Source: Eledone cirrhosa (taxonomy: Eukaryota). From it: a DNA stretch of 64,000 bases. The notes beneath the pieces are model-generated. The model made no database searches, was not told the DNA's origin, and was given only the letters and a program-made list of their open reading frames with translations. Positions 2,803 to 54,441 of the stretch are shown one piece after another. The stretch's first letter is position 1. The number at the start of each line of letters is the position of its first letter. Location: assembly GCA_964016885.1 (NCBI GenBank), contig OZ024759.1:8928001-8992000 (forward strand), in the 5' to 3' direction. The position numbers and the translations under genes are program-made.

Positions 2803-4142
2803 TTCTTCGGCCGAGTTTACACTCACAAAGATACTCGGATACGACATGAGCCACAGTCTCCTCTCTCTCTCCACAGACCCTAAACAGTGAGCTACCCTCC
2901 TTCTTGTCAATATGGGGTTTCACCCATTTCGTTCTGAGGGCTTGCTTTTGTGCAGCCATTAGCATTCCTTCTGTAGCTTTTTTAAGGTCTCCTCTTTTTA
3001 ACCAGCTCCATGACTGTGGATCTCTCAATTCCAATTTCTTTAAAGAAGGTGCTATGAAGGGATTTTTCATGAAGGTTGCTCTTCCTCTTTGGACATCCCC
3101 TGGTCTATTGTCTTCTCCTTCAGTACAATTTTGAGTATTGGCTCCCTACTGTCAGACACATATTTGTGTAGACTGCTCTTCTCCATCTGAACAAAGTCCT
3201 CTATGCTGATAAGACCTCTTCCACCTTCAGATCTCTTTAAGTACAGTCTATCAACATCGCTCCTCTTGTGGAACATGCTGTAGATAATCATTAGCTTCCT
3301 AGTCTTTCTATCCATTTCTTTTTGTTCAGTAACATTCTATTTCAGAATTCCTGCACTGTACCTAATAATAGACACAACTCGGGAATTTACTACACTTTTG
3401 ACATTCCTACTATTTAGATGTGATTTTAGTATGTTCCTTACTCACCTTATGTATTCAGATCTTATCAATTCCTTCATTTTATTGTTCTTGATGTCATCTG
3501 CCGCCAGAACACCCAAATATTTGTATCCCGCTTCAGTGTCAATTTCCTTTATCCTCTCACCTGTTGGTACCTGGATTCCGTTGCTTCTGCTCAATTTACC
3601 CCTATTCATCACTAGGACTCCACACTTATTAACACCACATTCCATACATATGGCTTAGTGGTTAGAGCATTGGCCTTGCAATTGAAAGGTTGCAGGTTCA
3701 ATTCTCAGACCGGGTGATGTGTTGTTTCCTTGAGCAAGACACTTTATTTCACATTGCTCCAGTTTACTCAGCTGTAGAAATGAGATGATAGGGACTGGGG
3801 TCCCTATCATTCCACTGCAAAGTGGACGTGGAGGTGCCACGGCAAAAAAGCACCCAGCACTCACTGTAAATGAGGTTGGTGTTAGGAAGGGCATCCAGCT
3901 GTAGAAATCAAGCCAGAATCAGTTCCCGTCTCACTCTTGCAAGCAGGGAAAAAGTGTACGTAAAATGAAATGATGATGATATCATTGCTGAAAATACAGA
4001 CAGTTTTAACAAGTACATCCAACTCCTCGCTTTTCCCAAATAGTTTTAGATCGTCTGTGAAGAGGAGGTGGTTGATGGTAAGCTCTCCTCTTCCCAGCTT
4101 GTATCCTGCTTTCACTTTTTGCAATATGAGGGACAAGGAAAT
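2803..4142 (-). mobile_element. Decayed R4/Dong-like non-LTR retrotransposon fragment, interrupted by a SINE
   Basis: INHLLFTDDLKL, YKYLG, LYLKRSEGGRGL and AAQKQALRT...RVCGEREETVAHVVSE in broken frames. Confidence 0.75.
3648..3980 (+). mobile_element. tRNA-derived SINE (family A), full length
   Basis: A-box tggcttagtgg, B-box ggttcaattc, central ccttgagcaagacactt, (tga)n tail; 4 copies in the window. Confidence 0.88.
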
Positions 4143-5315
4143 GACTGTCGTGCCTTGTCCCAAACTCCATCTGACTGCAGTGGAGCGTTTGCCCTTCCAA
4201 TTTTTGTTCTGATGGTCAGGTGGTCCATCTGCTGCCAACAACCCCTGCGTGGAGGACTGGGAATGCTGTGGCTAATGATTTTCAGACATGCACTGAGGCT
4301 ATGCTATCTCCATCTTTTCCTTAACAGTGAACAGGTGTGGTTATCTTTCACCAGATACATGTTTCTCCAGTTCATATCCTTAATGGAGCTACAGTCCTGG
4401 GTCAAGCGGAGACCAAGGAAGAGCACTTGGAAAATGTCTCCAGGCACTTACAGCCCTTCAACAATCGGGCAATAAGATCGGTGGAAACACCACCTTGGCA
4501 TTCTATAGAGGGTTAGTGGCAGATAAAAGTGACATCATTCTTAAGGAAACTCTAGACATTGAAGAAAATCAACTAGTAACTCTTTTCGGAAGGACTTTCG
4601 GTCCATGGGCGTGGATAATTTCCAGAAATCTCTGGCATGGAAGTGCTACCGAGGAGCTTTGCCAGTTCAAAATAAACTCTACAGACATGGAAGTGCTGTC
4701 AGCTGGGCCTGTCTGGGGTGCGTGCAGGATGACAAAACTGTCCTGCACACAATCATTCAGTGTCTGAGCATTGCTGACTTGTGGGTTTATTTTGAACACC
4801 TGCTGTCATGTGTAGGACAAATTTGGTTATCAACCGAGTCCATTGTGAAGATTGTTCCGCCGCCTTCTTTGTGTCTTGTGGCCATGGTGAAAGAGGTTGT
4901 ATGGTGAACACACTTGAAAGATTTGAAGATGACCAGTTTCCTCTTTAGAGAAACCCTGATTAACTTCTTTAGATTCCCCTTGAGGAAGAAAATAAGGGTA
5001 GAGAGTGAGGTGCTGCCTTCTCAGCAATTTGTTGAAAGGTGGGTGAGTGAAGCGAGCATGGCTCGAGTGAATGGGCCCACTCTGAGTGTGAGCCTGTAGA
5101 TTGGAGGAGTACAACTGGGACAGGGCACTTACCCTAAAGATCAGGGCATCCATGGTTTTATGGGTTTTTTTTTTTCCATGAATGACCCTCAAACATCTCC
5201 TCCCTATTGAGGAGCCTTCTTTGTTTTAGTTTTATTATTATCTTTTTTAACATTGTTAAAATTTGTTTACACGCCCCCCTCCTCCCACACACACATACAC
5301 ACATATACTCACACC

Positions 5316-5355
<40 letters not shown>

Positions 5356-5420
5356 ATGTTTTCATCCTGTGCTGTCATAATGTATTTCTTGATGTGGACC
5401 CTTTGTGGTTAATAAAGAAA
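4143..5420 (+). mobile_element. Decayed 5'-truncated Tx1-clade LINE (ORF2 C-terminus plus 3'UTR)
   Basis: VRWSICCQQPLRGGLGM, DNFQKSLAWKCYRGALPV and ERWV...RVNG homologous to 50611-54048; ends gtggttaataaagaaa. Confidence 0.9.
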
Positions 5421-17733: not shown

Positions 17734-20700
17734 TCATCATCATCATCATCATCATCAGGTTTAGCGTCCGTGTTCCACGCTTGCATGGGTTTGGACGGGG
17801 GTTTTCCCACTTGAGGCAAGAGTGGTTGTCTTGCTCGCATAGGACTGTCTGGCGGGTTTTCTACAGTTGGATGCCCTTCCTAACACCAACCACATTTACA
17901 GAGTGGGGCTGGGAGGTTTTTACCGTGTTGCCTACACGGCCACATTACAGCGTGGACTGTCTGGCGGGTTTTCTACAGCTGGATGCCCTTCCTAACACCA
18001 ACCACATTTACAGTGTGGGGCTGGGAGGTTTTTACCGTGTTGCCTACACGGCCACATTTACAGCGTGGACTGTGTGTTTTTTGTCGTGACACCTACACGA
18101 TCTCATTTGTTTCGGCCTGGATGTTGTGGGACCAACATAACTTTACATTGAAAGGGGCGGTGTGGGTGGGGTGGAGGTGGTGGGACGGGGGTGTGTTTTG
18201 ATAGAGGTGCCTACTGACTGTAGTAGGTTTTTACTTTGTATTTAGGTAAGGCGGGTCTTCTCTATTACTGAGTACCGCCAAAGGTCTCGGTCCAGTGACA
18301 TTGTCTTGGAGAGGTGTAAGCGTGTGAGGTCGGAATTTATCAGCTCGTCCCATGTTTTTCTGGGTCTGCCTACTCCGTGGCTACCGTCTATCTTTATTGC
18401 CCTGCACTTTGTTATACAGCTGTCGTCTTTCATGCGCATCACGTGACCGTACCAACGTAGCCTTCTCTCGAGTAAACAACATCTGATCCCTCTTATTTCT
18501 AATTTTTTCCTTAGTTCGTTTATGCTTTGCCGTTCGCGTATATTACTATTGCACATCCAGCGGAGCATGCAAGCTTCGTTCCTCTCTAGTCTGCGTATAT
18601 CCTCTGCACACAATGCCCAGGTCTCACTGCCATGCAGCATTGCTGTTCGTATGCAGGCATCGTATAACCTGCCTTTCATTTTTAGGGAGAACCCTCTAGC
18701 GGCTAATAGTGGTATAAGCTCTCTGAACTTTTTCCATCCAGTTCTGACTCTAGCTACTGTACTTTCAGAGCACCCTCCCCCACTGCTGATTTTGTCACCC
18801 AGATAACGGAAGCTGTCCACTATTTCTATAGAACCCTCTGCGCAGTTGAAGGAGCTAGTATTTTGTGGGCACTTGCTGCTACTTATTGCACCAGAGCACC
18901 GGCCACATGTAAAATCTATGTTCTTAGTTAGCTTACCTGTGATCCCACTACATCTTTTATGCACCCATACTTTGCATTTGGGACATAAAATGGAGTTTCT
19001 ACCTACGCCTTTCCTACACACTGAGCATGGCCATTTCCCCGATGGGACCGCCGCCTTATTTTCTTTCCTACAAACTAGAGCTTTAGTCTTAGCCAGGTTA
19101 ATTTTAAGGCCTTTTGATTCTAGGCCGTGCTTCCACGTTTGGAATTTCTTCTCTAGTTCGGTCATTGATTCGGCTATGAGCGTTAGATCATCTGCGTATA
19201 GGAGTTCCCATGGGCAGCCGGTCTTGAACTCCTCTGTTATAGCCTGAAGGGCAATAATAAATAGTAGGGGGCTAAGTACAGAGCCCTGATGGACACCAAC
19301 TTTTACGCTAAACTCTTCACTATATTCGTTGTTAATTCTAACCTTACTGACTGTTTCTTTATACATGGCTTGTATAGCTCTCACAAGCCATTCGTCAACA
19401 CCTAGTTTTCTAAGAGACCACCAGATAATGGAACGGGGGACTCTGTCGAAGGCTTTCTCCAAGTCGACAAAAGCTAAGTATAGGGGTTTACTTTTAGCTA
19501 GGTACTTCTCCTGTAGTTGTCGTACAATGAAAAGAGCGTCTGTGGTACTTTTGCCTGACACAAACCCGAACTGCATTTCATCTAGATCAATTCTCTCTCT
19601 GATTAGTTGCGCTATTACTTTTTCCGTGACCTTCATGACCTGGTCGATTAATTGAATGCCTCTATAGTTACTCCTATCTAGGGCATCTCCTTTTCCCTTA
19701 TAGCAGTTAACGATGATGCTGCTACGCCATTCCTTCGGAACAACCCCATTCTGTACGACTTGGTTAACTATCCGGGTGACCATGGTGTGTCCCACCGAAC
19801 CAGATGCCTTCAGCATCTCAGCAACTATTTCCGAAGGCCCAGCCGCCTTACCCGTCTTCATATCTTTGATTGCCTTACTTATTATACTACCTTCAACTAA
19901 CACTGCTGGTCCCTCTATTGGATCGATCTGGGGGAGACTGTCTTTCTCCCATTTGTTCTCCTCATTTAGAAGCCTTTCGTAGTGACACTTCCAAGCTACC
20001 TTCTTATCAGCGTCGGTGATGGCAAGTATGCCATCATCGTTAAGTACACACTTCTCCCCGACAATATCACGGTTTTCCTTGACACATTGCCTGGCAATCC
20101 TGAACACCTCACGTTTTTGGTCCTCACGTTGTAGAACATGCTTGAACTTTCTTTCCTCTGCTTCCCTTCTTGCGAAGTACACTTGTCTCCTAGCTTCCCT
20201 CCTGGCCACTTGATAGTCTTCTCTACTTCCCCCATCCCGCCATACTTTCCAAGCCTGCTTTTTGGCCTTAATTGACTCCTCCACCTTACTGTTCCACCAC
20301 CATGTTACTCTCCTCCTACCTACAGGCCTGCTCCAGCCACAGACTTCGTCTGCCGCTGTCAGCAGGTTTGCTCTCAGGAATTCCCACTGTTCCTCTATAT
20401 TATACGACTCTAATTGCTCTTCCTTACTGTCGAAAGCGTCAAGTAATTTGCTTTGAAATTTATTTCTGGCTATGGGGTCCTTTAGCTTCCATATTTTTCT
20501 CCTGAGGATAGTCCTCTTCCGCTGTCTAGTACGTCTCGTCCTGACTATGAGGTCGCTAATTATCAGTCTATGTTGGGAGGTGAATTCTTCATGGGGGTGG
20601 GATTTAGTGTTAACAACAGACACTCTGTCACGTCTTCTGGTAAGGATATAATCTACCTGGCTTGTGTGTTCCCCCGATCTATAGGTGATCAAGTGATTGT

Positions 20701-22300
20701 CTCGTTTTTTGAAGTTAGTGTTACAGATAGTTAAGTTATTTGCGTCGCAGAATTCCAGGATTCTGGAGCCTTCCTCATTTCTAGTACCGAACCCATAGCC
20801 TCCATGGATTACGTCATAGCCGTCACAATGTTGTCCAACGTGACCATTTAGGTCGCCTGCAATAACTATATAGTCACTGTCGGTTATTTGGGAGGTAGCG
20901 AGCATCAGTGTCTCGTAGAATCTGTCTTTTATAGCGCGGGGCAGTCCGGATTGGGGTGCGTACGCAGATATTACTGTCACCGTAGTTTTATTGAGGACAA
21001 GTCTTATTTTAATTATTCTGTCGTTCACTCTATTTACGTCTATTATCTTATCTGCCCACTTTTCTGCTACCATGATTCCTACCCCACCCAACCCATTGTC
21101 ATTTCCCACCCAGAAAAGCTTATAGCATCGCTCTTTACCCACGATGAATCTAGCCGACCCTCCCCTCCACCTGGTCTCTTGAATACAACAAACATCGACC
21201 TCCTTACGTTCAAGCATTTCTACAACCTCGTTAGAGCGACCCTTTAAGGTGCCTACATTCATGGTACCAACTCTGAAGTTTTGGATTGCGTTTGGAGGGT
21301 GGGAGCAGTGGGGCGCGGGGGGGGATGGGGTTATGTTAGCCATCCTGGGCCGAAACAAGGAGGAGTGCTTGCATTCTCGTCCACGAGGTGAATTTGGCTT
21401 TATCTTTGGCATTGTCGCTGAGCGTCCACATTTTTCTCTCTTCAACTCTCCAGAATTCCGTAGTCCATCCATCATATCGAAAAGCAACCAGTTAAGCGAT
21501 AGTATGGGCCTCTGACTTATGATTGGTCCACGTAATAATGGTGGTGCGTGGGGGCGGGAGGGAGGGATGATGGGTTGTTAGCGAGAATGTAAGGTTTAAG
21601 ATAAGATCGCCGTATTTTGGGCATGATTTAACAATAAACGAAAATACAAGATTTGTTTTGTTTAAGAAATTACGATAGAGAAAATGCGGTGATAGGGAAA
21701 ATATGATTTTTAGAGAAAAGATATGATATAGAATGGTGAAAATATGATATAGTGTGAAATTAGGACATAGGAGTGATTGAATGAATGGGTTCGAATGGAG
21801 AGAAGAATCGAGAAAAAATTGGGCATAATTTAACAATAAACGAAAATACAAGATTTGTTTTGTTTAAGAAAATACGGTAGAGAAAATGCGGTGATAGGGG
21901 AAATATGATTTTTAGAGAAAAGATATGATATAGAATGGTGAAAATATGATATAGTGTGAAATTAGGACATAGGAGTGATTGAATGAATGGGTTCGAATGG
22001 AGAGAAGAATCGAGAAAAATTTGAACGTTACTTTATACCGGAGGGAACAGCCATCCCAGAAATAGCGAGTTGGCGATTTTGATTAATTTTGGTAGGGTTT
22101 TATCTTATATGTATAGAGAGGGAGGGGGGGGGGCAGGAACCAGCATGATGAATGGGTAGGGGGTAGAATATGGGATGGAGCAGAGGTTAAAAGTTTAAAT
22201 AGGTACTTGAAGATTTGCGTAAAACTTAGCAAGTTTAACAAATTATATTTAAAGGAATATATAATAGTGATAGCGAGAATGTAAGGTTTAAGATAAGATA
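17734..22300 (-). mobile_element. Full-length RTE-clade LINE (5' boundary approximate)
   Basis: Single intact APE-RT ORF; 3'UTR with 112-bp duplication; (tga)n tail next to (TA)n; 5' region with 202-bp tandem duplication (about 21617-22020). Confidence 0.92.
18242..21475 (-). CDS. RTE ORF: AP endonuclease, reverse transcriptase and PHD-like Zn finger (1077 aa from the first ATG)
   Basis: GTMNVGTL, CIQETRW, GDLNGH, QVDYIL, SQHRL; FVDLEKAFD, GVHQGSVLSP, LLYADD; RRLRWYGHVMR; no stops. Confidence 0.96.
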   Translation of the reverse strand: MMDGLRNSGELKREKCGRSATMPKIKPNSPRGRECKHSSLFRPRMANITPSPPAPHCSHPPNAIQNFRVGTMNVGTLKGRSNEVVEMLERKEVDVCCIQETRWRGGSARFIVGKERCYKLFWVGNDNGLGGVGIMVAEKWADKIIDVNRVNDRIIKIRLVLNKTTVTVISAYAPQSGLPRAIKDRFYETLMLATSQITDSDYIVIAGDLNGHVGQHCDGYDVIHGGYGFGTRNEEGSRILEFCDANNLTICNTNFKKRDNHLITYRSGEHTSQVDYILTRRRDRVSVVNTKSHPHEEFTSQHRLIISDLIVRTRRTRQRKRTILRRKIWKLKDPIARNKFQSKLLDAFDSKEEQLESYNIEEQWEFLRANLLTAADEVCGWSRPVGRRRVTWWWNSKVEESIKAKKQAWKVWRDGGSREDYQVARREARRQVYFARREAEERKFKHVLQREDQKREVFRIARQCVKENRDIVGEKCVLNDDGILAITDADKKVAWKCHYERLLNEENKWEKDSLPQIDPIEGPAVLVEGSIISKAIKDMKTGKAAGPSEIVAEMLKASGSVGHTMVTRIVNQVVQNGVVPKEWRSSIIVNCYKGKGDALDRSNYRGIQLIDQVMKVTEKVIAQLIRERIDLDEMQFGFVSGKSTTDALFIVRQLQEKYLAKSKPLYLAFVDLEKAFDRVPRSIIWWSLRKLGVDEWLVRAIQAMYKETVSKVRINNEYSEEFSVKVGVHQGSVLSPLLFIIALQAITEEFKTGCPWELLYADDLTLIAESMTELEKKFQTWKHGLESKGLKINLAKTKALVCRKENKAAVPSGKWPCSVCRKGVGRNSILCPKCKVWVHKRCSGITGKLTKNIDFTCGRCSGAISSSKCPQNTSSFNCAEGSIEIVDSFRYLGDKISSGGGCSESTVARVRTGWKKFRELIPLLAARGFSLKMKGRLYDACIRTAMLHGSETWALCAEDIRRLERNEACMLRWMCNSNIRERQSINELRKKLEIRGIRCCLLERRLRWYGHVMRMKDDSCITKCRAIKIDGSHGVGRPRKTWDELINSDLTRLHLSKTMSLDRDLWRYSVIEKTRLT

Positions 22301-23971: not shown

Positions 23972-24824
23972 AGCATCGGTGAGGTGTGAATGGGGGCAAG
24001 GCACGACAGTCGGGCATAGTAGATGCCGGACGTGATGTATGCATTCACCACCGCCGCCCGACATTTCAAGGCAAGGTTTCTCTCAGCCCATTTCTGGGTG
24101 AGAGTGGCTACCTTGATCATCACCTCGTCCCAATTATTATCCACTTGGAGGTCTGGTCTGAGCCAAACCCTGAGCAACTTTACCGGTCCATCCGTCCAGC
24201 GCCCAACAATGCTGTTGGATGGCATGAACTTGTCTCTCCAGGTGCCGAACTTCAAGCCCGACTTTTCCGGGTTTAGTTTCGCTCCCATCAACCTTTCATA
24301 TTCCTCCAAGAGGGTGCCAACCACCTCGATTTTTGAGGTGTTCAACACCATCACGGTGATGTCGTCTGCATAAGCCAACACAGCCCTTCTGCGTCCCAGT
24401 CCTAGCGGGATGCTCTGCCTGCCACAGCTCCAGCATCTGCAGTAAAGGCTTGACAGTCAATACGTACAGAAAGGAGGAGAGAGGGCACCTTTGATGGACC
24501 GATCGGGAGATCTGAAACGGTTCCGTGAGGTGGCTATTAACTTTGACCACCGAACAGGTGCCGCTGAGCATTGCAGCGATCCAGCCTCTGAATCCGGGAC
24601 CAAAGTCAGCCGCTTTGAGGACAGCCTCCAGGTACCGATGGTCAACCCTATCGAAAGCTTTCAATTGATCTAAATTGATCAGAGCCCCACCAAAGTCAGG
24701 TTTACACCCTACCCTCTCTATGATGTATCGCATGAGGTGGAGGTTGTTGTGTATGGACCCGGTCAGGATTGTGCAAGTTTGTATCTCCCCTCACCAAATC
24801 CTTGACGACAAGCGTCAACCTCTT
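23972..24824 (-). mobile_element. Decayed Tx1 RT fragment
   Basis: MRYIIERVG..GGALINLDQLKAFDRVDH and AYADD, with frameshifts. Confidence 0.92.
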
Positions 24825-41272: not shown

Positions 41273-41792
41273 GTCAGTTTAACCCTTTACCATGCACATT
41301 ACTCTATATATACTATTGTATTTTCACAGTAAAGGCTTTACCTCACGTAATACCTCACATAACATTTACATTACTCTATATATACTATTGTATTGTCACA
41401 GTAAAGGCTTTACCTCACATAATATCTCACATACCATTTACATTACTCTATATATACTATTGTATTTTCACAGTAAAGGCTTTACCTCACATAATATCTC
41501 ACATAACATTTACATTACTCTATATATACTATTGTATTGTCACAGTAAAGGCTTTACCTCACATAATATCTCACATAACATCTCGTATACGAGAGACGTG
41601 TGTTGACGTGTGTGAACAAGCTCGGCTACCGAGTCGGATTTACTTACTCAAAAAGTGAGTTTTGATTAATTTTTTTATACTGTAATATACGTTAACCCCT
41701 TGCCTTGGTCGTCAAACTTTGAGTTTATTTATTTTCGCCCCTTTTGGGGGCGAATTTTCCAGTTAAAAATTTATTACGGCAAACTAATAGAA

Positions 41793-43536
41793 ATGGACGG
41801 AATTTTCACATCTCATCCTAACGTGAAAGCCACGCCCCCTAAGAAAGGTGATACAGAGAAGCTAGAAGCACAAGGCTCTAAGTCTTCCCTCCTGACTTCT
41901 GCAAAAGAAACATGGAACACGGAATTAAAAGAAAAATTTGTAAAAATGGGTGAAAACCCAGAAAGTCACATAAACGCAGACAAAAACAACAACGACAATA
42001 ACAGCAATAGTCACAACACCAACCAAGGAAAAAATAACGATAACACCAAACAAAGCGAACCCACTACTGGTACCTCCTTTGCACAGGCGGTCCGGAAAAC
42101 ACAAACCTGCAAGCAACTGGACATTACAACTCTGAGAGAAAAGATGAAGGAAGCGAAACAGTATGTAACTTTCAAAGAAGGAGGAGACTTCACAATCACC
42201 TCCCCACAAGAAATCAAAAGAGACACGACGCTAAGAACGATATCTTTCAGAACAATTTCCAACATAACAAGGAAACCAACTCAATTATCCCAAAAAGAGA
42301 TTGAGCTGGTCCTAAAAAATGTGTGGAGTGATATATCGTTCATACAAAAAGGGCCACTCTATGGGAATATAACGGTCCTAATGAAGGATCAATTGACGGC
42401 CAGGAAATACTCTGTGGCACCAATTGTTTCCAAGATATATACATTTTTCCCCACATATTTAGGGAAAAGAACGCAGAAGATAAGGGTCTCCGGAATCCGG
42501 CCAAATGCATGCATTTCCTGGGTACTAACAGGATTTTTAGAAGACGAGGACGGAATCCTCTCAGTAGGAGAAGTCACCACAGACGTTTTCGGCGGTTTGA
42601 GCGTGGAGGTTCTGGTCCAAATGAGACCAGAACGAATAGCTAGAATACCACAGAGGGTGTCCCTCGATGGAGAAACATTTATATATATTTCAGCCGAGGG
42701 TAGGAGGCCCATATGTTACTACTGTTCAAGCAGGGGTCATCTAAGGGCTGCTTGTCCTCAATTGACAAAAAAAAAAGGCTCTTTTGCCTACACCCCACAC
42801 ACCACCACCGCCACCACCACCACCACCACCACCTCCACCACCACCACCACAACAACAACAAAAACAACAGGGAAAAATAACACAAGACACGGCCCCACCC
42901 AAAACAACTCCCAAAACACACACAAATACAACAAAACCCCAAAATACACCACTACCCGACAGCACGGACGAGGACCCAGCGGAAACGGCACCTAGTGACG
43001 AAGAGGGGGAACCCTTCCAACCTGTAAAAAGGAAAAAAAGAAAGCACCACTCGAACATAAACGAAACAAACACACAACCACCAACAAAAACAAAACAAAC
43101 AGAACAAACAAAATCCGCCCCACCCCAAAACATAACACATACAACAAAACGTAAGCACACACAAGAACAACAAACAAACACAACACAAATAAAACAGTAT
43201 ACATACATTAACACAAATAACAAAGAACTAGTAAAAACAATACACAAAGACCCTTTGGTGGAAACTGAAGGGCAATTCTTTGCAAGCGCGGCCAACAAAC
43301 CGCATTTAAAAATGATAAGACTCCCAATGGACACCTATGCAAAACTAAGAGAGAACTTTCCTGAGGACGTGGGGAAAACATGTACTCGACCCTATAACCG
43401 CGTCCTCTTGAAACGTTTCCCCACCCACACCTCACCAAACACCCCCACTCCACCACAGAACAACACCCCACCAAACAACCCCTCCAATACGCCCATGGAT
43501 ATTGTGCAACCTGCTCCTCAGGAGCCGAACAGGTAG
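41793..43536 (+). pseudogene. Tx1 ORF1, frameshifted
   Basis: One extra A relative to copy 2 (may be a homopolymer sequencing error). Confidence 0.85.
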
Positions 43537-43557
43537 GTCCTTCCTCTTTTAACCAAC

Positions 43558-46500
43558 ATGGCTGATATAAGAGTTGGGTGTCTGAATGTACGTGGCCTGG
43601 GACTGTCTTGGAAACAAGGCAAACTTTTAAACGATCTCAGGTCGCATAGAATGGATGTAATGGCTATTTGCGAGTCCAGGATCAGCAGCGAGCACCAACT
43701 GGCGCCCCTCTTCGACGACTTTGAGATCTTCGCATCTCTCTGTCAACCGGGGGGTGGGGGTGGAGTTGTCGTTCTGCTGCGAAAACACCTGGGCCTCGCC
43801 ATACAGAAGGTGCACCTGGACCCGGAGGGTCGACTGGTGGTTTTAGACGTCGGCAGTAGTGAAAGTGGAGCCCTTAGACTAATAGCTGTGTACGCCCCTT
43901 TTTGGGCAGCGCGGCCGGAATACTTCCAACGTCTGGAAACTTTTCTGGGAACGTCCCGCTCCTTGCTTTTAGTGGGGGACTGGAATGGTATCCTGGATGC
44001 ACGTTGGGACTATGTAGGGGCATGTGCCAATAGAGGGGGGTGTAAAAGCCTCAAAAGGTTAATCGGCCGATTTGACCTGGCCGATAGATATCGACTAGAT
44101 TTTCCGACTGTACCACTATGGACGTGGACCAATCGCAGTGGAACATCTAGGTCGTACCTAGATAGGGTCCTAGTTAGAGAGAACGATAGGGACACATTTA
44201 GCTGTCCAAAAATGTTCATGGTTGACTATTCGGATCACAAGTTAGTGACCTGCATAGCCAACCTTGATAGAACCCATAGACAGGGACCCGGTTACTGGAA
44301 GCTGAACTTGTCCTTACCGAGAAGCAAAGCTTACAGTAAACGGATTAGCACGTTAGTTAAGCAGAGTTTGACAGGGGCAATTGTCAACAACAGGTGGTGG
44401 AGCTCTCTTAAGAGAGCAATTAGAATAGAATCGATAGGTTTTAGTCAGGAATTAGCAAGGGATAGGAACAAGACGGAAAGGGAATTAGTAGATAGAGTAG
44501 AAGAGGCGATTAGGAGTGGCAATGTAGCCGGCGTGCTGGCATCAAGAATGGCCTTAGACCAGTTCTTTGAGGTGAAGCATGAAGGCTGCGTTGTCAGGAG
44601 TAAAATACGTGCTCTGGGTAATGAGGGAGCCAAAGCTGTGAGCTGGGCCCGAGTGACAGAGGCAAAAAGTGGGAACAAGTCCACGATTCGGTCTTTGAAG
44701 GACCAGGATGGGCGTGTGATCCTTGAACCTGGGCAGATGTGTGCGGCCTTTCAGCGGCACTTTGCACGACTGTTCGAGGGGGGCGGCGCGCCGGGTGAGA
44801 CTATGGATTTCAATCCATACCTCGACGGTCTGCCGCGCCTCTCGGACGCGGAGGCGAAGTCCTGCGAAAGGACGATTTCAGCTGCTAAGATAGGGGCGGC
44901 GCTGAGCCAATGCGGCAAACGCAAATCCCCGGGTCTCGATGGTCTACCATACGAGCTATATGTAGCGATGCCGGACTTGTTCTCCGATATCCTCGAAGCG
45001 ATCTAATGCAACTGGCAGCAGAACGGGAGAATTCCCAGTTCTGTGACCAAGGGCGTAGTTACGCTGGTGAGGAAGGATGAGAACAAGGGGGATGACATAA
45101 GTAACTTCAGGCCCATAACTCTGCTAAATACAGAGTTAAAGATTTTGGCCAAGGTGTTAGCGAAGAGGTTGGCGCTTGTCGTTGGAAACCTGGTGGGAGA
45201 AGCGCAGACATGCGCAATCCCGTCCAGGTCCATTCACGACAATCTCCACCTTATGCGATACATCATAGAGAGGGTAGGGAATGAACCCGGCTTTGGTGGG
45301 GCCCTGATCAACTTGGATCAATCTAAAGCTTTCGATAGGGTTGACCATCGTTACCTGGATGCGGTGCTCGCGGCGGCAGGCTTCGGACCCGTTTTCAGGG
45401 GTTGGATTGCTGCGATGCACAGCAGCAACGTCTGCTCAAGGGTCAAGGTGAACGGCCACCTCTCGGAGCCGTTCCAAATCATGCGATCCATCCGACAGGG
45501 ATGCCCTCTCTCCTCCCTACTGTATGTGCTGGCTCTTGAGCCACTACTGCGGAAGTTGGAGCGGTTGCAGGGCATCCCTTTGGAACCGGGATTGCAGAAA
45601 GCGGCGTCGGCCTACGCCGATGACGTGACAGTAATGGTGTCGAAAACCTCGCAAATCGGTGAGATCGGCACCTTACTGGAGGAATATGAAAGGTTTACAG
45701 GAGCCAAGCTGAACCGGGACAAGTCCGTCGGTTTGCAACTCGGAACATGGAGAGGCAAACCGATGCCCTCCAACGACGTCGTCGGACGCTGGACGGAGGG
45801 CCCGGTGAAGCTGCTTGGGGTCTGGTTCGGACCAGACCTCCAGGTGGAGAAAAACTGGAACGAGGTAACGGCCAGGGTGTTTGCACTCACCCAGAAGTGG
45901 GCCCAGTGCAAACTATCCCTGAAAGGTCGAGCGGAGGTGGCGAATACTTATATAGCATCCGTCATCTACTACCGCTTGACCGTCGTGCCTTGCCCAGTGA
46001 AAAGACTCGCCAAAATGGAGTGCGCGCTGTTCCAATTTCTTTGGAACAAGCGGACCCCTTTGGTGAGGAGATCCATCTGCTGTCAACACCCTTCGAAAGG
46101 AGGGCTGGGGATGCCGTGGCTACAGATGCGTAAACACGCATTAAGGCTACGGCACCTCCAAGTATTCCTCACCGGTCAACCGGTGTGGGCCCCGTTTGTG
46201 AGGCGAGCCTTTCCCAGACTCGTCTCGCTCACCGAGCTGCAATCCTGGGTCAAGCAAAGACCGAGAAAAGTGGGCGACTGGCACATTGAATGTGCCCAGG
46301 CGCTCACGGTCCTCTGGAAAGCGGACCCGGCAATCAGTGGAGACTCCACGTCGACATTCTATAGAGGGTTGGTACGCAGCAGGTGCGACGATGCTCTCGG
46401 AGAAGCTCTAGGCATGGAGGAAGATGAACTGGCCAGTCTGTTCGGTAGGACGTTTGGCCCTGGACCGATGGACAACTTCCAAAAGTCCCTGGCTTGGCAG

Positions 46501-46995
46501 TGCTACCGAGGGGCTCTACCCGTTCGAGACAAGCTCCACAGGCATGGGAGCCTGGGTAGAGATCCTTTGAATAAGATCTGTCCGAGATGCGTGCATGATG
46601 ACGAAACCGTTGCGCACGCATTCGTACACTGCCCAGGCATTGCTGACCTGTGGGGCTATGTGGAACGACTACTGTCGAGGGTGGGACCAATCCGGTTGAC
46701 CACCGAGTCCATTGTCACGATCAAACCGCCTCCCCCTTTCAAAAACGAAGGAGAGGCGGTTTTTCTCTGTGTGGTAGCCATGGCTAAAGAAGTTGTATGG
46801 TGGACGAGGCTGAAAGGGCTGAGGTCAGACACCTTTCTCTCCGGCCAACAACTGGTCCCCTTTTTCAAATACCATTTTAAAAGAAGGATCAGAATGGAGA
46901 GAGAGGTGCTCTACCCCAGCAAGTTTTATGAAAGGTGGGTGAAAGTAGGGAGAATGGCCAGAGTGAATGGGTCTTCTCTCTATATCAGCCTGTAG
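43558..46995 (+). pseudogene. Tx1 ORF2 with a premature stop
   Basis: atcTAA versus gtcTAC in copy 2. Confidence 0.9.
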
Positions 46996-48861
46996 GTAAA
47001 AGAAGAGGAAAAAGAGGAGACGAGGGAAGCACCTACTCTTTGTGCTCCTGAGGAGAAGGGTTGCACATTTTTTCCGGGGTGTGTGCGACCCATGTTAATG
47101 CCCCCTCCCTATTGAGGACTTCGTTTGTTGTTGTTATTTCATTGTTATATTTTTGTACTCGTTAATTATATGTAAACTTCCCCCCTTGTATCTGTCCCTA
47201 CCTTTTGTGCCCTAGTGGCAAATAAAGAAACCACTCTATATATACTGTTGTATTTTCACAGTAAAGGCTTTACCTCACATAATATCTCACATAACATTTA
47301 CATTACTCTATATATACTATTGTATTGTCACAGTAAAGGCTTTACCTCACATAATATCTCACATAACATTTACATTACTCTATATATACTATTGTATTGT
47401 CACAGTAAAGGCTTTACCTCACATAATACATCACATAACATTTACATTACTCTAAATATACTATTGTATTTTCACAGTAAAGGCTTTACCTCACATAATA
47501 TCTCACATAACATTTACATTACTCTATATATACTATCGTATTTTCACAGTAAAGGCTTTACCTCACATAATATCTCACATAACATTTACATTACTCTATA
47601 TATACTATTGTATTGTCACAGTAAAGGCTTTACCTCACATAATATCTCACATAACATTTACATTACTCTATATATACTATTGTATTGTCACAGTAAAGGC
47701 TTTACCTCACATAATACATCACATAACATTTACATTACTCTAAATATACTATTGTATTTTCACAGTAAAGGCTTTACCTCACATAATATCTCACATAACA
47801 TTTACATTACTCTAAATATACTATCGTATTTTCACAGTAAAGGCTTTACCTCACATAATATCTCACATAACATTTACATTACTCTATATATACTATTGTA
47901 TTTTCACAGTAAAGGCTTTACCTCACATAATATCTCACATAACATTTACATTACTCTATATATACTATTGTATTGTCACAGTAAAGACTTTACCTTACAT
48001 ATCTCACATAACATTTACATTACTCTATATATACTATTATATTTCCACAGTAAAGGCTTTACCTCACATAAAATCTCACATAACATTTACACTACTCTAT
48101 ATATACTATTGTATTTTCACGGTAAACAGTTTACCTCACATAACATTTACATTACTCTATATATACTATTGTATTTTCACAGTAAAGGCTTTACCTCACA
48201 TAATACCTCACATAACATTTACATTACTCTATATATACTATTGTATTGTCACAGTAAATGCTTCACCTCACATAATATCTTCCATAACATTTACATTACT
48301 CTATATATACTATTGTATTGTCACAGTAAAGGCTTTACCTCACATAATATCTCACATAACAGTTACATTACTCTATATATACTATTGTATTGTCACAGTA
48401 AAGGCTTTACCTCACATAATACCTCACATAACATTTACATTACTCTATATATACTATTGTATTGTCACAGTAAAGCCTTTACCTCACATAATATCTCACA
48501 TAACATTTACATTACTCTATATATACTGTTGTATTTTCACAGTAAAGGCTTTACCTCACATAATATCTCACATAACATTTACATTACTCTATATATACTA
48601 TTGTATTGTCACAGTAAAGGCTTTACCTCACATAATATCTCACATAACATCTCGTATACGAGAGACGTGTGTTGACGTGTGAGAACAAGCTCGGCTACCG
48701 AGTCGGATTTACTTACTCAAAAAGTGAGTTTTGATTAATTTTTTTATACTGTAATATACGTTAACCCCTTGCCTTGGTCGTCAAACTTTGAGTTTATTTA
48801 TTTTCGCCCCTTTTTGGGGCGAATTTTCCAGTTAAAAATTTATTACGGCAAACTAATAGAA

Positions 48862-50589
48862 ATGGACGGAATTTTCACATCTCATCCTAACGTGAAAGCC
48901 ACGCCCCCTAAGAAAGGTGATACAGAGAAGCTAGAAGCACAAGGCTCTAAGTCTTCCCTCCTGACTTCTGCAAAAGAAACATGGAACACGGAATTAAAAG
49001 AAAAATTTGTAAAAATGGGTGAAAACCCAGAAAGTCACATAAACGCAGACAAAAACAACAACGACAATAACAGCAATAGTCACAACACCAACCAAGGAAA
49101 AAATAACGATAACACCAAACAAAGCGAACCCACTACTGGTGCCTCCTTTGCACAGGCGGTCCGGAAAACACAAACCTGCAAGCAACTGGACATTACAACT
49201 CTGAGAGAAAAGATGAAGGAAGCGAAACAGTATGTAACTTTCAAAGAAGGAGGAGACTTCACAATCACCTCCCCACAAGAAATCAAAAGAGACACGACGC
49301 TAAGAACGATATCTTTCAGAACAATTTCCAACATAACAAGGAAACCAACTCAATTATCCCAAAAAGAGATTGAGCTGGTCCTAAAAAATGTGTGGAGTGA
49401 TATATCGTTCATACAAAAAGGGCCACTCTATGGGAATATAACGGTCCTAATGAAGGATCAATTGACGGCCAGGAAATACTCTGTGGCACCAATTGTTTCC
49501 AAGCTACATACATTTTTCCCCACATATTTAGGGAAAAGAACGCAGAAGATAAGGGTCTCCGGAATCCGGCCAAATGCATGCATTTCCTGGGTACTAACAG
49601 GATTTTTAGAAGACGAGGACGGAATCCTCTCAGTAGGAGAAGTCACCACAGACGTTTTCGGCGGTTTGAGCGTGGAGGTTCTGGTCCAAATGAGACCAGA
49701 ACGAATAGCTAGAATACCACAGAGGGTGTCCCTCGATGGAGAAACATTTATATATATTTCAGCCGAGGGTAGGAGGCCCATATGTTACTACTGTTCAAGC
49801 AGGGGTCATCTAAGGGCTGCTTGTCCTCAATTGACAAAAAAAAAGGCTCTTTTGCCTACACCCCACACACCACCACCGCCACCACCACCACCACCACCAC
49901 CTCCACCACCACCACCACAACAACAACAAAAACAACAGGGAAAAATAACACAAGACACGGCCCCACCCAAAACAACTCCCAAAACACACACAAATACAAC
50001 AAAACCCCAAAATACACCACTACCCGACAGCACGGACGAGGACCCAGCGGAAACGGCACCTAGTGACGAAGAGGGGGAACCCTTCCAACCTGTAAAAAGG
50101 AAAAAAAGAAAGCACCACTCGAACATAAACGAAACAAACACACAACCACCAACAAAAACAAAACAAACAGAACAAACAAAATCCGCCCCACCCCAAAACA
50201 TAACACATACAACAAAACGTAAGCACACACAAGAACAACAAACAAACACAACACAAATAAAACAGTATACATACATTAACACAAATAACAAAGAACTAGT
50301 AAAAACAATACACAAAGACCCTTTGGTGGAAACTGAAGGGCAATTCTTTGCAAGCGCGGCCAACAAACCGCATTTAAAAATGATAAGACTCCCAATGGAC
50401 ACCTATGCAAAACTAAGAGAGAACTTTCCTGAGGACGTGGGGAAAACATGTACTCGACCCTATAACCGCGTCCTCTTGAAACGTTTCCCCACCCACACCT
50501 CACCAAACACCCCCACTCCACCACAGAACAACACCCCACCAAACAACCCCTCCAATACGCCTGTGCAACCTCAGGAGCCGAACAGGTAG
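48862..50589 (+). CDS. Tx1 ORF1p (575 aa from ATG): CCHC zinc knuckle, poly-Pro, T/N/Q-rich tail
   Basis: SFAQAV; CYYCSSRGHLRAAC; basic KRKKRK. Confidence 0.92.
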   Translation: MDGIFTSHPNVKATPPKKGDTEKLEAQGSKSSLLTSAKETWNTELKEKFVKMGENPESHINADKNNNDNNSNSHNTNQGKNNDNTKQSEPTTGASFAQAVRKTQTCKQLDITTLREKMKEAKQYVTFKEGGDFTITSPQEIKRDTTLRTISFRTISNITRKPTQLSQKEIELVLKNVWSDISFIQKGPLYGNITVLMKDQLTARKYSVAPIVSKLHTFFPTYLGKRTQKIRVSGIRPNACISWVLTGFLEDEDGILSVGEVTTDVFGGLSVEVLVQMRPERIARIPQRVSLDGETFIYISAEGRRPICYYCSSRGHLRAACPQLTKKKALLPTPHTPPPPPPPPPPPPPPPPQQQQKQQGKITQDTAPPKTTPKTHTNTTKPQNTPLPDSTDEDPAETAPSDEEGEPFQPVKRKKRKHHSNINETNTQPPTKTKQTEQTKSAPPQNITHTTKRKHTQEQQTNTTQIKQYTYINTNNKELVKTIHKDPLVETEGQFFASAANKPHLKMIRLPMDTYAKLRENFPEDVGKTCTRPYNRVLLKRFPTHTSPNTPTPPQNNTPPNNPSNTPVQPQEPNR

Positions 50590-50610
50590 GTCCTTCCTCT
50601 TTTAACCAAC

Positions 50611-53600
50611 ATGGCTGATATAAGAGTTGGGTGTCTGAATGTACGTGGCCTGGGACTGTCTTGGAAACAAGGCAAACTTTTAAACGATCTCAGGTCGCAT
50701 AGAATGGATGTAATGGCTATTTGCGAGTCCAGGATCAGCAGCGAGCACCAACTGGCGCCCCTCTTCGACGACTTTGAGATCTTCGCATCTCTCTGTCAAC
50801 CGGGGGGTGGGGGTGGAGTTGTCGTTCTGCTGCGAAAACACCTGGGCCTCGCCATACAGAAGGTGCACCTGGACCCGGAGGGTCGACTGGTGGTTTTAGA
50901 CGTCGGCAGTAGTGAAAGTGGAGCCCTTAGACTAATAGCTGTGTACGCCCCTTTTTGGGCAGCGCGGCCGGAATACTTCCAACGTCTGGAAACTTTTCTG
51001 GGAACGTCCCGCTCCTTGCTTTTAGTGGGGGACTGGAATGGTATCCTGGATGCACGTTGGGACTATGTAGGGGCATGTGCCAATAGAGGGGGGTGTAAAA
51101 GCCTCAAAAGGTTAATCGGCCGATTTGACCTGGCCGATAGATATCGACTAGATTTTCCGACTGTACCACTATGGACGTGGACCAATCGCAGTGGAACATC
51201 TAGGTCGTACCTAGATAGGGTCCTAGTTAGAGAGAACGATAGGGACACATTTAGCTGTCCAAAAATGTTCATGGTTGACTATTCGGATCACAAGTTAGTG
51301 ACCTGCATAGCCAACCTTGATAGAACCCATAGACAGGGACCCGGTTACTGGAAGCTGAACTTGTCCTTACCGAGAAGCAAAGCTTACAGTAAACGGATTA
51401 GCACGTTAGTTAAGCAGAGTTTGACAGGGGCAATTGTCAACAACAGGTGGTGGAGCTCTCTTAAGAGAGCAATTAGAATAGAATCGATAGGTTTTAGTCA
51501 GGAATTAGCAAGGGATAGGAACAAGACGGAAAGGGAATTAGTAGATAGAGTAGAAGAGGCGATTAGGAGTGGCAATGTAGCCGGCGTGCTGGCATCAAGA
51601 ATGGCCTTAGACCAGTTCTTTGAGGTGAAGCATGAAGGCTGCGTTGTCAGGAGTAAAATACGTGCTCTGGGTAATGAGGGAGCCAAAGCTGTGAGCTGGG
51701 CCCGAGTGACAGAGGCAAAAAGTGGGAACAAGTCCACGATTCGGTCTTTGAAGGACCAGGATGGGCGTGTGATCCTTGAACCTGGGCAGATGTGTGCGGC
51801 CTTTCAGCGGCACTTTGCACGACTGTTCGGGAGGGGCGGCGCGCCGGGTGAGACTATGGATTTCAATCCATACCTCGACGGTCTGCCGCGCCTCTCGGAC
51901 GCGGAGGCGAAGTCCTGCGAAAGGACGATTTCAGCTGCTGAGATAGGGGCGGCGCTGAGCCAATGCGGCAAACGCAAATCCCCGGGTCTCGATGGTCTAC
52001 CATACGAGCTATATGTAGCGATGCCGGACTTGTTCTCCGATATCCTCGAAGCGGTCTACTGCAACTGGCAGCAGAACGGGAGAATTCCCAGTTCTGTGAC
52101 CAAGGGCGTAGTTACGCTGGTGAGGAAGGATGAGAACAAGGGGGATGACATAAGTAACTTCAGGCCCATAACTCTGCTAAATACAGAGTTAAAGATTTTG
52201 GCCAAGGTGTTAGCGAAGAGGTTGGCGCTTGTCGTTGGAAACCTGGTGGGAGAAGCGCAGACATGCGCAATCCCGTCCAGGTCCATTCACGACAATCTCC
52301 ACCTTATGCGATACATCATAGAGAGGGTAGGGAATGAACCCGGCTTTGGTGGGGCCCTGATCAACTTGGATCAATCTAAAGCTTTCGATAGGGTTGACCA
52401 TCGTTACCTGGATGCGGTGCTCGCGGCGGCAGGCTTCGGACCCGTTTTCAGGGGTTGGATTGCTGCGATGCACAGCAGCAACGTCTGCTCAAGGGTCAAG
52501 GTGAACGGCCACCTCTCGGAGCCGTTCCAAATCATGCGATCCATCCGACAGGGATGCCCTCTCTCCTCCCTACTGTATGTGCTGGCTCTTGAGCCACTAC
52601 TGCGGAAGTTGGAGCGGTTGCAGGGCATCCCTTTGGAACCGGGATTGCAGAAAGCGGCGTCGGCCTACGCCGATGACGTGACAGTAATGGTGTCGAAAAC
52701 CTCGCAAATCGGTGAGATCGGCACCTTACTGGAGGAATATGAAAGGTTTACAGGAGCCAAGCTGAACCGGGACAAGTCCGTCGGTTTGCAACTCGGAACA
52801 TGGAGAGGCAAACCGATGCCCTCCAACGACGTCGTCGGACGCTGGACGGAGGGCCCGGTGAAGCTGCTTGGGGTCTGGTTCGGACCAGACCTCCAGGTGG
52901 AGAAAAACTGGAACGAGGTAACGGCCAGGGTGTTTGCACTCACCCAGAAGTGGGCCCAGTGCAAACTATCCCTGAAAGGTCGAGCGGAGGTGGCGAATAC
53001 TTATATAGCATCCGTTATCTACTACCGCTTGACCGTCGTGCCTTGCCCAGTGAAAAGACTCGCCAAAATGGAGTGCGCGCTGTTCCAATTTCTTTGGAAC
53101 AAGCGGACCCCTTTGGTGAGGAGATCCATCTGCTGTCAACACCCTTCGAAAGGAGGGCTGGGGATGCCGTGGCTACAGATGCGTAAACACGCATTAAGGC
53201 TACGGCACCTCCAGGTATTCCTCACCGGTCAACCGGTGTGGGCCCCGTTTGTGAGGCGAGCCTTTCCCAGACTCGTCTCGCTCACCGAGCTGCAATCCTG
53301 GGTCAAGCAAAGACCGAGAAAAGTGGGCGACTGGCACATTGAATGTGCCCAGGCGCTCACGGCCCTCTGGAAAGCGGACCCGGCAATCAGTGGAGACTCC
53401 ACGTCGACATTCTATAGAGGGTTGGTACGCAGCAGGTGCGACGATGCTCTCGGAGAAGCTCTAGACATGGAGGAAGATGAACTGGCCAGTCTGTTCGGTA
53501 GGACGTTTGGCCCTGGACCGATGGACAACTTCCAAAAGTCCCTGGCTTGGCAGTGCTACCGAGGGGCTCTACCCGTTCGAGACAAGCTCCACAGGCATGG

Positions 53601-54048
53601 GAGCCTGGGTAGAGATCCTTTGAATAAGATCTGTCCGAGATGCGTGCATGATGACGAAACCGTTGCGCACGCATTCGTACACTGCCCAGGCATTGCTGAC
53701 CTGTGGGGCTATGTGGAACGACTACTGTCGAGGGTGGGACCAATCCGGTTGACCACCGAGTCCATTGTCACGATCAAACCGCCTCCCCCTTTCAAAAACG
53801 AAGGAGAGGCGGTTTTTCTCTGTGTGGTAGCCATGGCTAAAGAAGTTGTATGGTGGACGAGGCTGAAAGGGCTGAGGTCAGACACCTTTCTCTCCGGCCA
53901 ACAACTGGTCCCCTTTTTCAAATACCATTTTAAAAGAAGGATCAGAATGGAGAGAGAGGTGCTCTACCCCAGCAAGTTTTATGAAAGGTGGGTGAAAGTA
54001 GGGAGAATGGCCAGAGTGAATGGGTCTTCTCTCTATATCAGCCTGTAG
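50611..54048 (+). CDS. Tx1 ORF2p (1145 aa): APE endonuclease, RT and C-terminal CCHC
   Basis: LNVRGL, GDWN, SYLDR, SDH, GYWKLN, KSPGLDGL, DQSKAFDRV, RQGCPLS, AYADD, GGLG, CPRC...ETVAH...C. Confidence 0.97.
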   Translation: MADIRVGCLNVRGLGLSWKQGKLLNDLRSHRMDVMAICESRISSEHQLAPLFDDFEIFASLCQPGGGGGVVVLLRKHLGLAIQKVHLDPEGRLVVLDVGSSESGALRLIAVYAPFWAARPEYFQRLETFLGTSRSLLLVGDWNGILDARWDYVGACANRGGCKSLKRLIGRFDLADRYRLDFPTVPLWTWTNRSGTSRSYLDRVLVRENDRDTFSCPKMFMVDYSDHKLVTCIANLDRTHRQGPGYWKLNLSLPRSKAYSKRISTLVKQSLTGAIVNNRWWSSLKRAIRIESIGFSQELARDRNKTERELVDRVEEAIRSGNVAGVLASRMALDQFFEVKHEGCVVRSKIRALGNEGAKAVSWARVTEAKSGNKSTIRSLKDQDGRVILEPGQMCAAFQRHFARLFGRGGAPGETMDFNPYLDGLPRLSDAEAKSCERTISAAEIGAALSQCGKRKSPGLDGLPYELYVAMPDLFSDILEAVYCNWQQNGRIPSSVTKGVVTLVRKDENKGDDISNFRPITLLNTELKILAKVLAKRLALVVGNLVGEAQTCAIPSRSIHDNLHLMRYIIERVGNEPGFGGALINLDQSKAFDRVDHRYLDAVLAAAGFGPVFRGWIAAMHSSNVCSRVKVNGHLSEPFQIMRSIRQGCPLSSLLYVLALEPLLRKLERLQGIPLEPGLQKAASAYADDVTVMVSKTSQIGEIGTLLEEYERFTGAKLNRDKSVGLQLGTWRGKPMPSNDVVGRWTEGPVKLLGVWFGPDLQVEKNWNEVTARVFALTQKWAQCKLSLKGRAEVANTYIASVIYYRLTVVPCPVKRLAKMECALFQFLWNKRTPLVRRSICCQHPSKGGLGMPWLQMRKHALRLRHLQVFLTGQPVWAPFVRRAFPRLVSLTELQSWVKQRPRKVGDWHIECAQALTALWKADPAISGDSTSTFYRGLVRSRCDDALGEALDMEEDELASLFGRTFGPGPMDNFQKSLAWQCYRGALPVRDKLHRHGSLGRDPLNKICPRCVHDDETVAHAFVHCPGIADLWGYVERLLSRVGPIRLTTESIVTIKPPPPFKNEGEAVFLCVVAMAKEVVWWTRLKGLRSDTFLSGQQLVPFFKYHFKRRIRMEREVLYPSKFYERWVKVGRMARVNGSSLYISL

Positions 54049-54441
54049 GTGAAAGAAGAGGAAAAAGAGGAGACGAGGGAAGCACCTACTCTTTGTGCTC
54101 CTGAGGAGAAGGGTTACACATTTTTTCCGGGGTGTGTGCGACCCATGTTAATGCCCCCTCCCTATTGAGGACTTCGTTTGTTGTTGTTATTTCATTGTTA
54201 TATTTTTGTACTCGTTAATTATATGTAAACTTCCCCCCTTGTATCTGTCCCTACCTTTTGTGCCCTAGTGGCAAATAAAGAAACCACTCTATATATACTA
54301 TTGTATTGTCACAGTAAAGGCTTTACCTCACATAATATCTCACATAACATTTACATTACTCTATATATACTATTATATTTTGCTGGGGGTGCCGATGGTG
54401 GTGATGATCATGATGATAGTGATGATGATGTCTATTTACAG

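Follow-up and report, generated by a model that had tools for sequence, protein, structure and literature searches.

How one long interspersed nuclear element (LINE) RNA gives much protein from its first open reading frame (ORF1p), little from its second (ORF2p), while also acting as its own template, is the question raised by a locus of Eledone cirrhosa. The window, that is the whole stretch of 64,000 nucleotides analysed here (GenBank assembly GCA_964016885.1, contig OZ024759.1, positions 8,928,001 to 8,992,000, forward strand), is part of a 3.0-Gb genome and contains a 5.65-kb two-ORF element in two copies, 99% identical to each other. The first-pass annotation of the window had noticed that the end of ORF1 is complementary to the 3' untranslated region (3'UTR) 3.5 kb away, and had proposed a looped-RNA switch tied to an intact 3' end. 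We found that this pairing is conserved across related families, covaries and competes with a local fold, and that the duplex is very probably maintained by selection on its structure, while the function of the switch is predicted only. It is only in RNA of full length that the switch likely hides a splice donor and the start codon of ORF2. It is a conserved RNA element of this LINE lineage, larger than first reported and apparently undescribed.

In copy 1 (41582..47232, + strand), ORF1 (41793..43536, +; stop TAG at 43534-43536) is followed by ORF2 (43558..46995, +; ATG at 43558, stop TAG at 46993-46995), which forms the looped-out segment. The inverted match of 43503-43546 with the reverse complement of 47022-47067 was reproduced at 39 matches over 47 columns in a global alignment, with the exact blocks described earlier, and under strict scoring, when the first 2.4 kb of the element were compared with the remainder, no inverted match ranked above these arms (score 47; block-shuffled controls had a mean of 25.4 and a maximum of 34, and 0/100 reached 47). 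The 44-nt pairing is thus present, but it is not confined to those limits and runs on through the spacer and about seven ORF2 codons. The predicted full duplex of copy 1 joins 43486-43580 with 46969-47085 (80 bp, -110.5 kcal/mol), has the 43503-43546 arm as its middle, and sets the ORF2 AUG opposite the ORF2 UAG. Its left arm (43486..43580, +) holds the last 16 ORF1 codons, the donor, the stop, a pyrimidine-rich spacer, the ORF2 AUG and the first ~7 codons; its right arm (46969..47085, +) takes in the last ~8 ORF2 codons with the TAG, and then ~90 nt from the start of the 3'UTR, an anti-donor stretch among them. The 9-nt block is exact in copy 1, but rests on a minority allele, G at 47063 (3 of 20 copies); the other 17 fetched family A copies carry A, giving a C.A mismatch. 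For copy 2 (48651..54285, +; ORF1 48862-50589, ORF2 50611-54048), the 6-nt deletion described earlier was confirmed, but the core had not been kept as well as claimed, with an additional 9-nt deletion and a G>A change at 54116. Its arms lie at ~50554-50633 and ~54022-54138 (+), and its arm duplex is predicted at -55.4 versus -81.0 in copy 1. Since its left arm, with both deletions, occurs once in the whole genome, copy 2 is by its sequence a damaged copy and not a subfamily. Within the outer helix lies an in-frame ATG (43495-43536; M-D/E-hydrophobic), about 40 nt 5' of the ORF1 stop, which lineages A, I, E, G, F, K and B share.

Searches of the same genome with DNA, protein and pattern queries supplied the relatives. 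The panel consisted of 25 copies with both arms (1-5 per lineage, about a dozen related families, ORF2 DNA 65-98% identical), with near-identical copies and copies without an arm left out; 13 of the copies were located via a pattern containing the donor and 12 without it. The duplex was predicted at the same place in all 25 copies, and was stronger than dinucleotide shuffles in each of the nine families tested (z -3.0 to -7.9), as the shuffled-control check proposed in the first-pass annotation would have it. It outscored all other windows of its own element in 23/25 copies, the two exceptions being old family D copies, and in 22/25 when the scan was reversed. Covariation across subfamilies was clear in clade X but weak in clade Y. 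In clade X (16 copies), the 44 consensus pairs were 83.8% canonical versus 43-52% with slid partners, and 20 of them carried double changes; G-U cells numbered 87 versus 40 A-C cells, a comparison in which the fold itself permits G-U. On the ORF2 tree, six branches were compensatory versus 0.7 +/- 0.8 with permuted partners (0/2000), and pairs defined from family A only still gave six compensatory branches in the 13 other copies (0/2000). Cognate arms outpaired swapped arms (0/10000), and in 10 of 15 cases no other arm paired better than the cognate one.

At the end of ORF1, inside the left arm, lies a 5' splice-donor/U1-site motif, CAG/GTAGGT (43530..43538, +; intron position +1 is 43533), as judged by the usual splice-site consensus. 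Canonical genes for U1 small nuclear RNA are present in the genome, and the family A donor forms 8 Watson-Crick pairs with the 5' end of this U1 over positions -3 to +6, which is unique among the 277 GU sites of the family A element. The donor was the best or tied-best U1 match in 8/8 elements scanned (263-310 GU sites each). G/GTA stands at the ORF1 end in 25/25 copies, and the 12 copies found without the donor pattern have G/GTARGT in 11 cases and G/GTAATT in one. Because B and H have their ORF1 stop at donor +6, and most lineages have it at +2 (frames of damaged copies were assigned by peptide similarity), the motif has outlasted at least two ORF1 frame changes. In B, E and G the donor core is bulged out of the predicted helix yet unchanged in sequence. 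Kept across both the stop shift and the bulging, the donor is explained by neither the stop codon nor the pairing; what is conserved is its sequence, and a U1 site is the simplest reading. Family H has an extra local anti-donor in the spacer, forming a 7-9-bp hairpin over the donor in 8/8 copies, whose variants mostly retain pairing. Since an invariant donor motif sits in the helix, splice masking fits best among the roles that had been listed for the loop (readthrough, reinitiation or splice masking), but masking would be partial in B, E and G. In an older family D fragment of the window (4142-5420, +), 7 nt of the 3'UTR that face the donor match the U1 5' end exactly.

The start of the 3'UTR also folds locally. 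Hairpin P1 (47026..47048, +) overlaps the anti-donor and is an alternative to the long-range helix (92.7% paired, two pairs with double changes); hairpin P2 (47058..47091, +) uses as its 5' strand the outer block that also pairs with ORF1; hairpin P3 (47103..47117, +), with a conserved CUAUU loop, lies outside the long-range helix. Together the three were 95.2% paired versus 34-59% in slid controls, with 34 double-change cells versus 14.7 when shuffled, and their covariation exceeded 500/500 shuffles. P1 and P2 occupy right-arm bases and so exclude the long-range helix, and bases of the outer block co-change with both partners, the ORF1 strand and the local P2 strand. Because both folds are kept and yet are mutually exclusive, they are, as far as alignment and modelling can tell, the signature of a two-state switch. 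The long-range state was favoured in 24/25 copies after an estimated loop cost of ~9 kcal/mol, which uses general-knowledge constants. In the predicted closed state, at least 5 of the 9 donor nucleotides were paired in 20/25 copies, and the A or G of the AUG in 21/25. When ORF1 to stop+12 was blocked in the model, as by a ribosome of the usual footprint length, local pairing of the outer right arm went from 0.02-0.47 to 0.49-0.69, and a residual helix over the ORF2 AUG was predicted to stay at ORF1 termination in 18/25. An unstructured toehold at the 3'UTR start found no support, the region being unpaired at only 0.1-0.49. The CUAUU-loop hairpin and a CCCT(A/T/G)GTGG motif just 5' of the AATAAA (47208-47226) recur in both clades, and are candidate ORF2p recognition signals.

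We propose, tentatively and with slightly less than even confidence, that this zipper is a full-length checkpoint that masks the U1/donor site and is partly opened by ORF1 ribosomes. U1 would sit on the donor while the 3.5 kb of ORF2 is transcribed. The emerging 3' arm would then zip to the left arm, opening P1/P2 and displacing U1, and would also cover the ORF2 UAG, the only widely shared acceptor-like site. RNAs that end early would be left with a bare donor and be retained or degraded, or splicing might turn a minority of them into an ORF1-only mRNA; both fates, splicing and nuclear decay, would spare only RNA of full length. Once in the cytoplasm, the outer helix would be melted by a ribosome that completes ORF1, P1/P2 would refold, and the residual helix over the AUG would hold ORF2 reinitiation low. 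Going by the accessible parts of the sources, as for all literature comparisons here, unspliced RNA bearing a 5' splice-site motif is retained (PMC4380460), and a 5' splice site combined with a poly(A) junction triggers PAXT decay (bioRxiv 2024.07.23.604837). In a fuller version, which we hold to be possible but doubtful, the element would make a completeness checkpoint out of host surveillance: a perfect U1 site would act as a destroy-or-splice tag that the element's own 3'UTR cancels through strand displacement, and the zipper would also throttle ORF2 and free the hairpins recognized by the reverse transcriptase (RT) only upon ORF1 translation, so that RNA structure by itself would confer cis preference. 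Another purpose offered earlier for the loop, bringing nascent ORF2p to its own 3' end, would need no loop, since the ORF2 stop already adjoins the 3'UTR.

Two known systems come close to the checkpoint. The tombusvirus PRTE-RIV switch likewise pairs a stop-proximal element with the 3' end over ~3.5 kb and has mutually exclusive local folds, as P1/P2 provide here, and the removal of truncated genomes and cis preference have been suggested as its benefits (PMC3234231); it differs in promoting readthrough, which the reading frames exclude as a general mechanism in the LINE lineage, where the helix is ~80 bp long, runs over both ends of ORF2 and has a donor inside it. In murine leukemia virus (MLV), structure limits U1 access so that unspliced genomic RNA survives (PMC2794156), and in the LINE too a U1-complementary donor lies inside predicted structure. 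The MLV structure is, however, a local upstream stem-loop, while the antisense strand here is predicted to come from 3.5 kb downstream, only after ORF2 has been transcribed, and the acceptor is hypothetical. If true, the checkpoint would extend long-range RNA switches, known from RNA viruses, to non-LTR (long terminal repeat) retrotransposons, and would provide a natural example of long-distance masking, in which the sequence that covers a splice donor lies kilobases from it. With a compact element mapped by natural covariation across active families, the LINE question becomes directly testable.

Several observations weigh against the checkpoint and the selection argument beneath it. U1 binding, splicing and the duplex are predictions from sequence, and the cited decay pathways are known from human cells. 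The permutation tests do not fully remove relatedness, and every family comes from one genome. Clade Y gave three compensatory branches versus 0.9 (100/2000), and pairs taken only from F1 or only from B2 showed no significant compensation (244/2000 and 966/2000), their percent canonical being nonetheless above all controls. The sense fold was better than the antisense in only 18/25 copies, and the extension of the duplex into ORF2 compared modestly with synonymous recoding (z<0 in 20/25, p <= 0.05 in 7/25). The central donor bases (+2 to +4) are predicted to be unpaired in B, E and G, which would make the masking partial. ORF2 contains only 0-2 AATAAA, so there is no evident need for U1 protection from early polyadenylation. 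Finally, pattern searches for spliced genomic copies in five lineages found none.

The checkpoint and its rivals are not all exclusive, and several mechanisms could coexist. The strongest rival, possible though on balance improbable, is a mainly translational switch, in which the helix would hide the ORF2 AUG until an ORF1 ribosome opens it, reinitiation would be coupled to ORF1 translation, and P1/P2 would be freed as a template signal for new ORF2p, the donor being a separate matter. It has in its favour that the left arm straddles the ORF1 stop and the AUG in all families, that the AUG is so often predicted paired, and that the outer arm is released in the model when a ribosome occupies the ORF1 stop. 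It would work like the tombusvirus 3' switch (PMC3234231) and the MS2 Min Jou interaction, a long-range pairing that hides the polymerase start until the upstream structural gene is translated (PMC11339067); the latter is bacterial, spans 7 nt and has its partner in the upstream gene, whereas the partner here is the 3' end. SART1 and L1 also have bicistronic LINE RNAs with a separate ORF2 AUG past the ORF1 stop, and SART1 ORF2 reinitiation depends on RNA structure (PMC10275272, PMC5972666); that structure is local and downstream of an overlapping stop-start, with no 3'UTR partner or donor described in the accessible text. The translational switch leaves the invariant central donor and the family H donor hairpin unexplained. 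Moreover, the AUG mostly stays paired in the model with a ribosome at the ORF1 stop, which would make the helix a brake and not an on-switch.

Regulated splicing as the purpose of the element overlaps with the third step of the checkpoint, and is an unlikely explanation of the whole. Splicing from the donor to the ORF2 UAG would excise ORF2 exactly and give an abundant ORF1-only mRNA, with the helix setting the unspliced fraction. The donor is conserved, ORF2 ends in TAG in 22/25 copies, and the spliced frame stops within 3 codons in 12/25 versus 9/50 other frames, including family A, where the splice would leave the end of the ORF1 protein unchanged. Ty1/copia elements make a spliced gag-only RNA (PMC8892269), and by analogy with shGAG of EVD a donor in the structural gene could yield excess structural protein; EVD, however, is an LTR element with demonstrated splicing and early polyadenylation, whereas splicing here is hypothetical. 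Against this, the spliced frame has the earliest stop in only 9/25 copies, as by chance, and runs for 27-111 codons in most other lineages; family C has TAA in place of the TAG. Synonymous sites show no constraint that would point to an acceptor inside ORF2, where fourfold-site change had no dip (lowest window 1.17, null 5% 0.92). In the pattern searches, spliced copies in E/G, the only lineages with a counted denominator, were 0 versus 1427 unspliced; A, B and H gave 0 and C only one 10-nt deletion. Acceptor-agnostic patterns catch about 4 in 10 arbitrary acceptors. Cis preference could hide spliced copies, and their absence lowers the case for splicing without excluding it; spliced L1 RNAs, which keep ORF2, do retrotranspose (PMC5860796). 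Four contig sets of unknown library type gave 15 joints in 420, 0/15 at the donor, which is no evidence either way. Two other uses of the donor were rejected. If the donor were joined to an AG shortly past the ORF2 start, the resulting mini-intron would give a fusion in frame in A, E, G, I and C but not in F or K, and would be only 39-41 nt long in family A; circular ORF2 RNA finds no conserved acceptor before the AUG and no conserved donor after the stop.

We rate as still less probable a fold-back shield against nonsense-mediated decay (NMD), in which the residual helix past the ORF1 stop would bring the poly(A) tail near a stop otherwise 3.7 kb away. In human cells, NMD is suppressed when the tail folds back to the vicinity of a stop (PMC2689704), the residual helix is predicted in 18/25 copies, and the poly(A) signal lies ~175-280 nt past the ORF2 stop across families (in copy 1, AATAAA at 47221..47226, +, 228 nt 3' of the ORF2 stop). 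More than half of the helix, however, lies within ORF1 or beneath the terminating ribosome, while in that source the fold-backs under test joined a site 28-50 nt past the stop to one directly adjoining the poly(A) signal on its 5' side; the donor and the P1/P2 competition would be left unexplained. That the duplex has no function at all, being either an old inverted duplication whose halves template switching has kept similar, or a product of purine/pyrimidine bias, is very improbable. The spacer is pyrimidine-rich and the 3'UTR start purine-rich, the clade X antisense fold is nearly as strong (-53.4 versus -56.4), and the majority A allele at 47063 breaks one pair; but the duplex beats composition-preserving shuffles, and selection acting on RNA would account for the bulges and G-U pairs of its helices, for the covariation seen with a further, local partner, and for changes that fall within two coding regions; ORF2-less fold-back copies numbered 0 in family C. 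Tombusvirus-like readthrough of the ORF1 stop into an ORF1-ORF2 fusion, one of the roles first listed, is extremely improbable: pairing over 3.5 kb drives readthrough in a tombusvirus (PMC3234231) and the ORFs are in frame with no stop between them in families A and E, but ORF1 stop and ORF2 ATG are in frame in only 9/25 copies, several of these damaged, so that a downstream ORF in frame with a leaky stop is not general, the spacer varies from 21 to 48 nt, ORF1 uses three stop codons, and ORF2 keeps its own ATG in strong context in 24/25.

As far as tested, the duplex and donor appear to be limited to this lineage, because nine distant relatives (25-29% identity over the first aligned segment) show neither: none had a duplex z below -2 and none a donor. 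These came from a second metagenome scan with 80 loci, 21 of which had a long ORF with flanks; 12 were dropped for want of a clear start. No relatives outside the genome were found among viral contigs or in a first metagenome scan. Another group of relatives stands at ~40% ORF2 identity. The statement that pairing between the inter-ORF region and the 3'UTR is undescribed in LINEs held up in our search of open full text, most subscription papers, Repbase reports and supplements lying outside it.

With an N-terminal apurinic/apyrimidinic endonuclease (APE), an RT, a C-terminal zinc motif and an upstream ORF1, the element belongs to the L1/Tx1 group of non-LTR retrotransposons. ORF2 has the Pfam domains PF03372, PF00078 and PF13966 (APE endonuclease, RT and zf-RVT), and its best PDB match is human L1 ORF2p (E 3e-53, residues 4-857); the ORF1 translation shows a CX2CX4HX4C knuckle and no Pfam match. 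We take it to be a Tx1 element from the first-pass label and general traits, no named Tx1 reference being among the matches. Target-specific LINEs of the Tx1 clade share the two ORFs, the APE-RT arrangement and a preference for microsatellites or satellites (PMC4494074), but such a duplex or donor was not found for them in the literature searched. The two frames of copy 2 are open, unlike those of copy 1, which has a frameshift in ORF1 at 42767 and a premature stop in ORF2 at 45004-45006.

Copy 1 sits at a fixed site of a 72-bp satellite, and the same site was found at the 3' junction in 20/20 fetched family A copies. All 40 scored junction matches, out of 1424 candidates, were identical, and by this measure family A is young. 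Most other families end in (ATT)n or (TATC)n-like runs, and these ends of the sister families suggest a recent target switch in family A from microsatellite to satellite. Family A insertions are without target-site duplication, with ~7 nt of the repeat unit gone at the junction, and the junction is consistent at the 3' end in 20/20 copies and at the 5' end in 17/17 intact copies. The first 12 nt of the element (41582-41593) form a perfect palindrome. Two copies (L121 and L101) are 5'-truncated inside the left arm, a number too small to judge clustering. Full-length copies of families B and C stand head to tail in arrays with a spacing of ~5.8-6.1 kb (C1:423363105-423410160; C1:441104690-441131806), including mixed C-then-B neighbours at locus L043, where a fragment considered as a new family was rejected as family C. 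Besides the family D fragment, the window contains an older family B fragment of the same lineage (23975-24824, -), and an unrelated intact endonuclease-RT ORF of 1077 aa with a PHD finger (18242-21475, -), presumably an RTE-type LINE.

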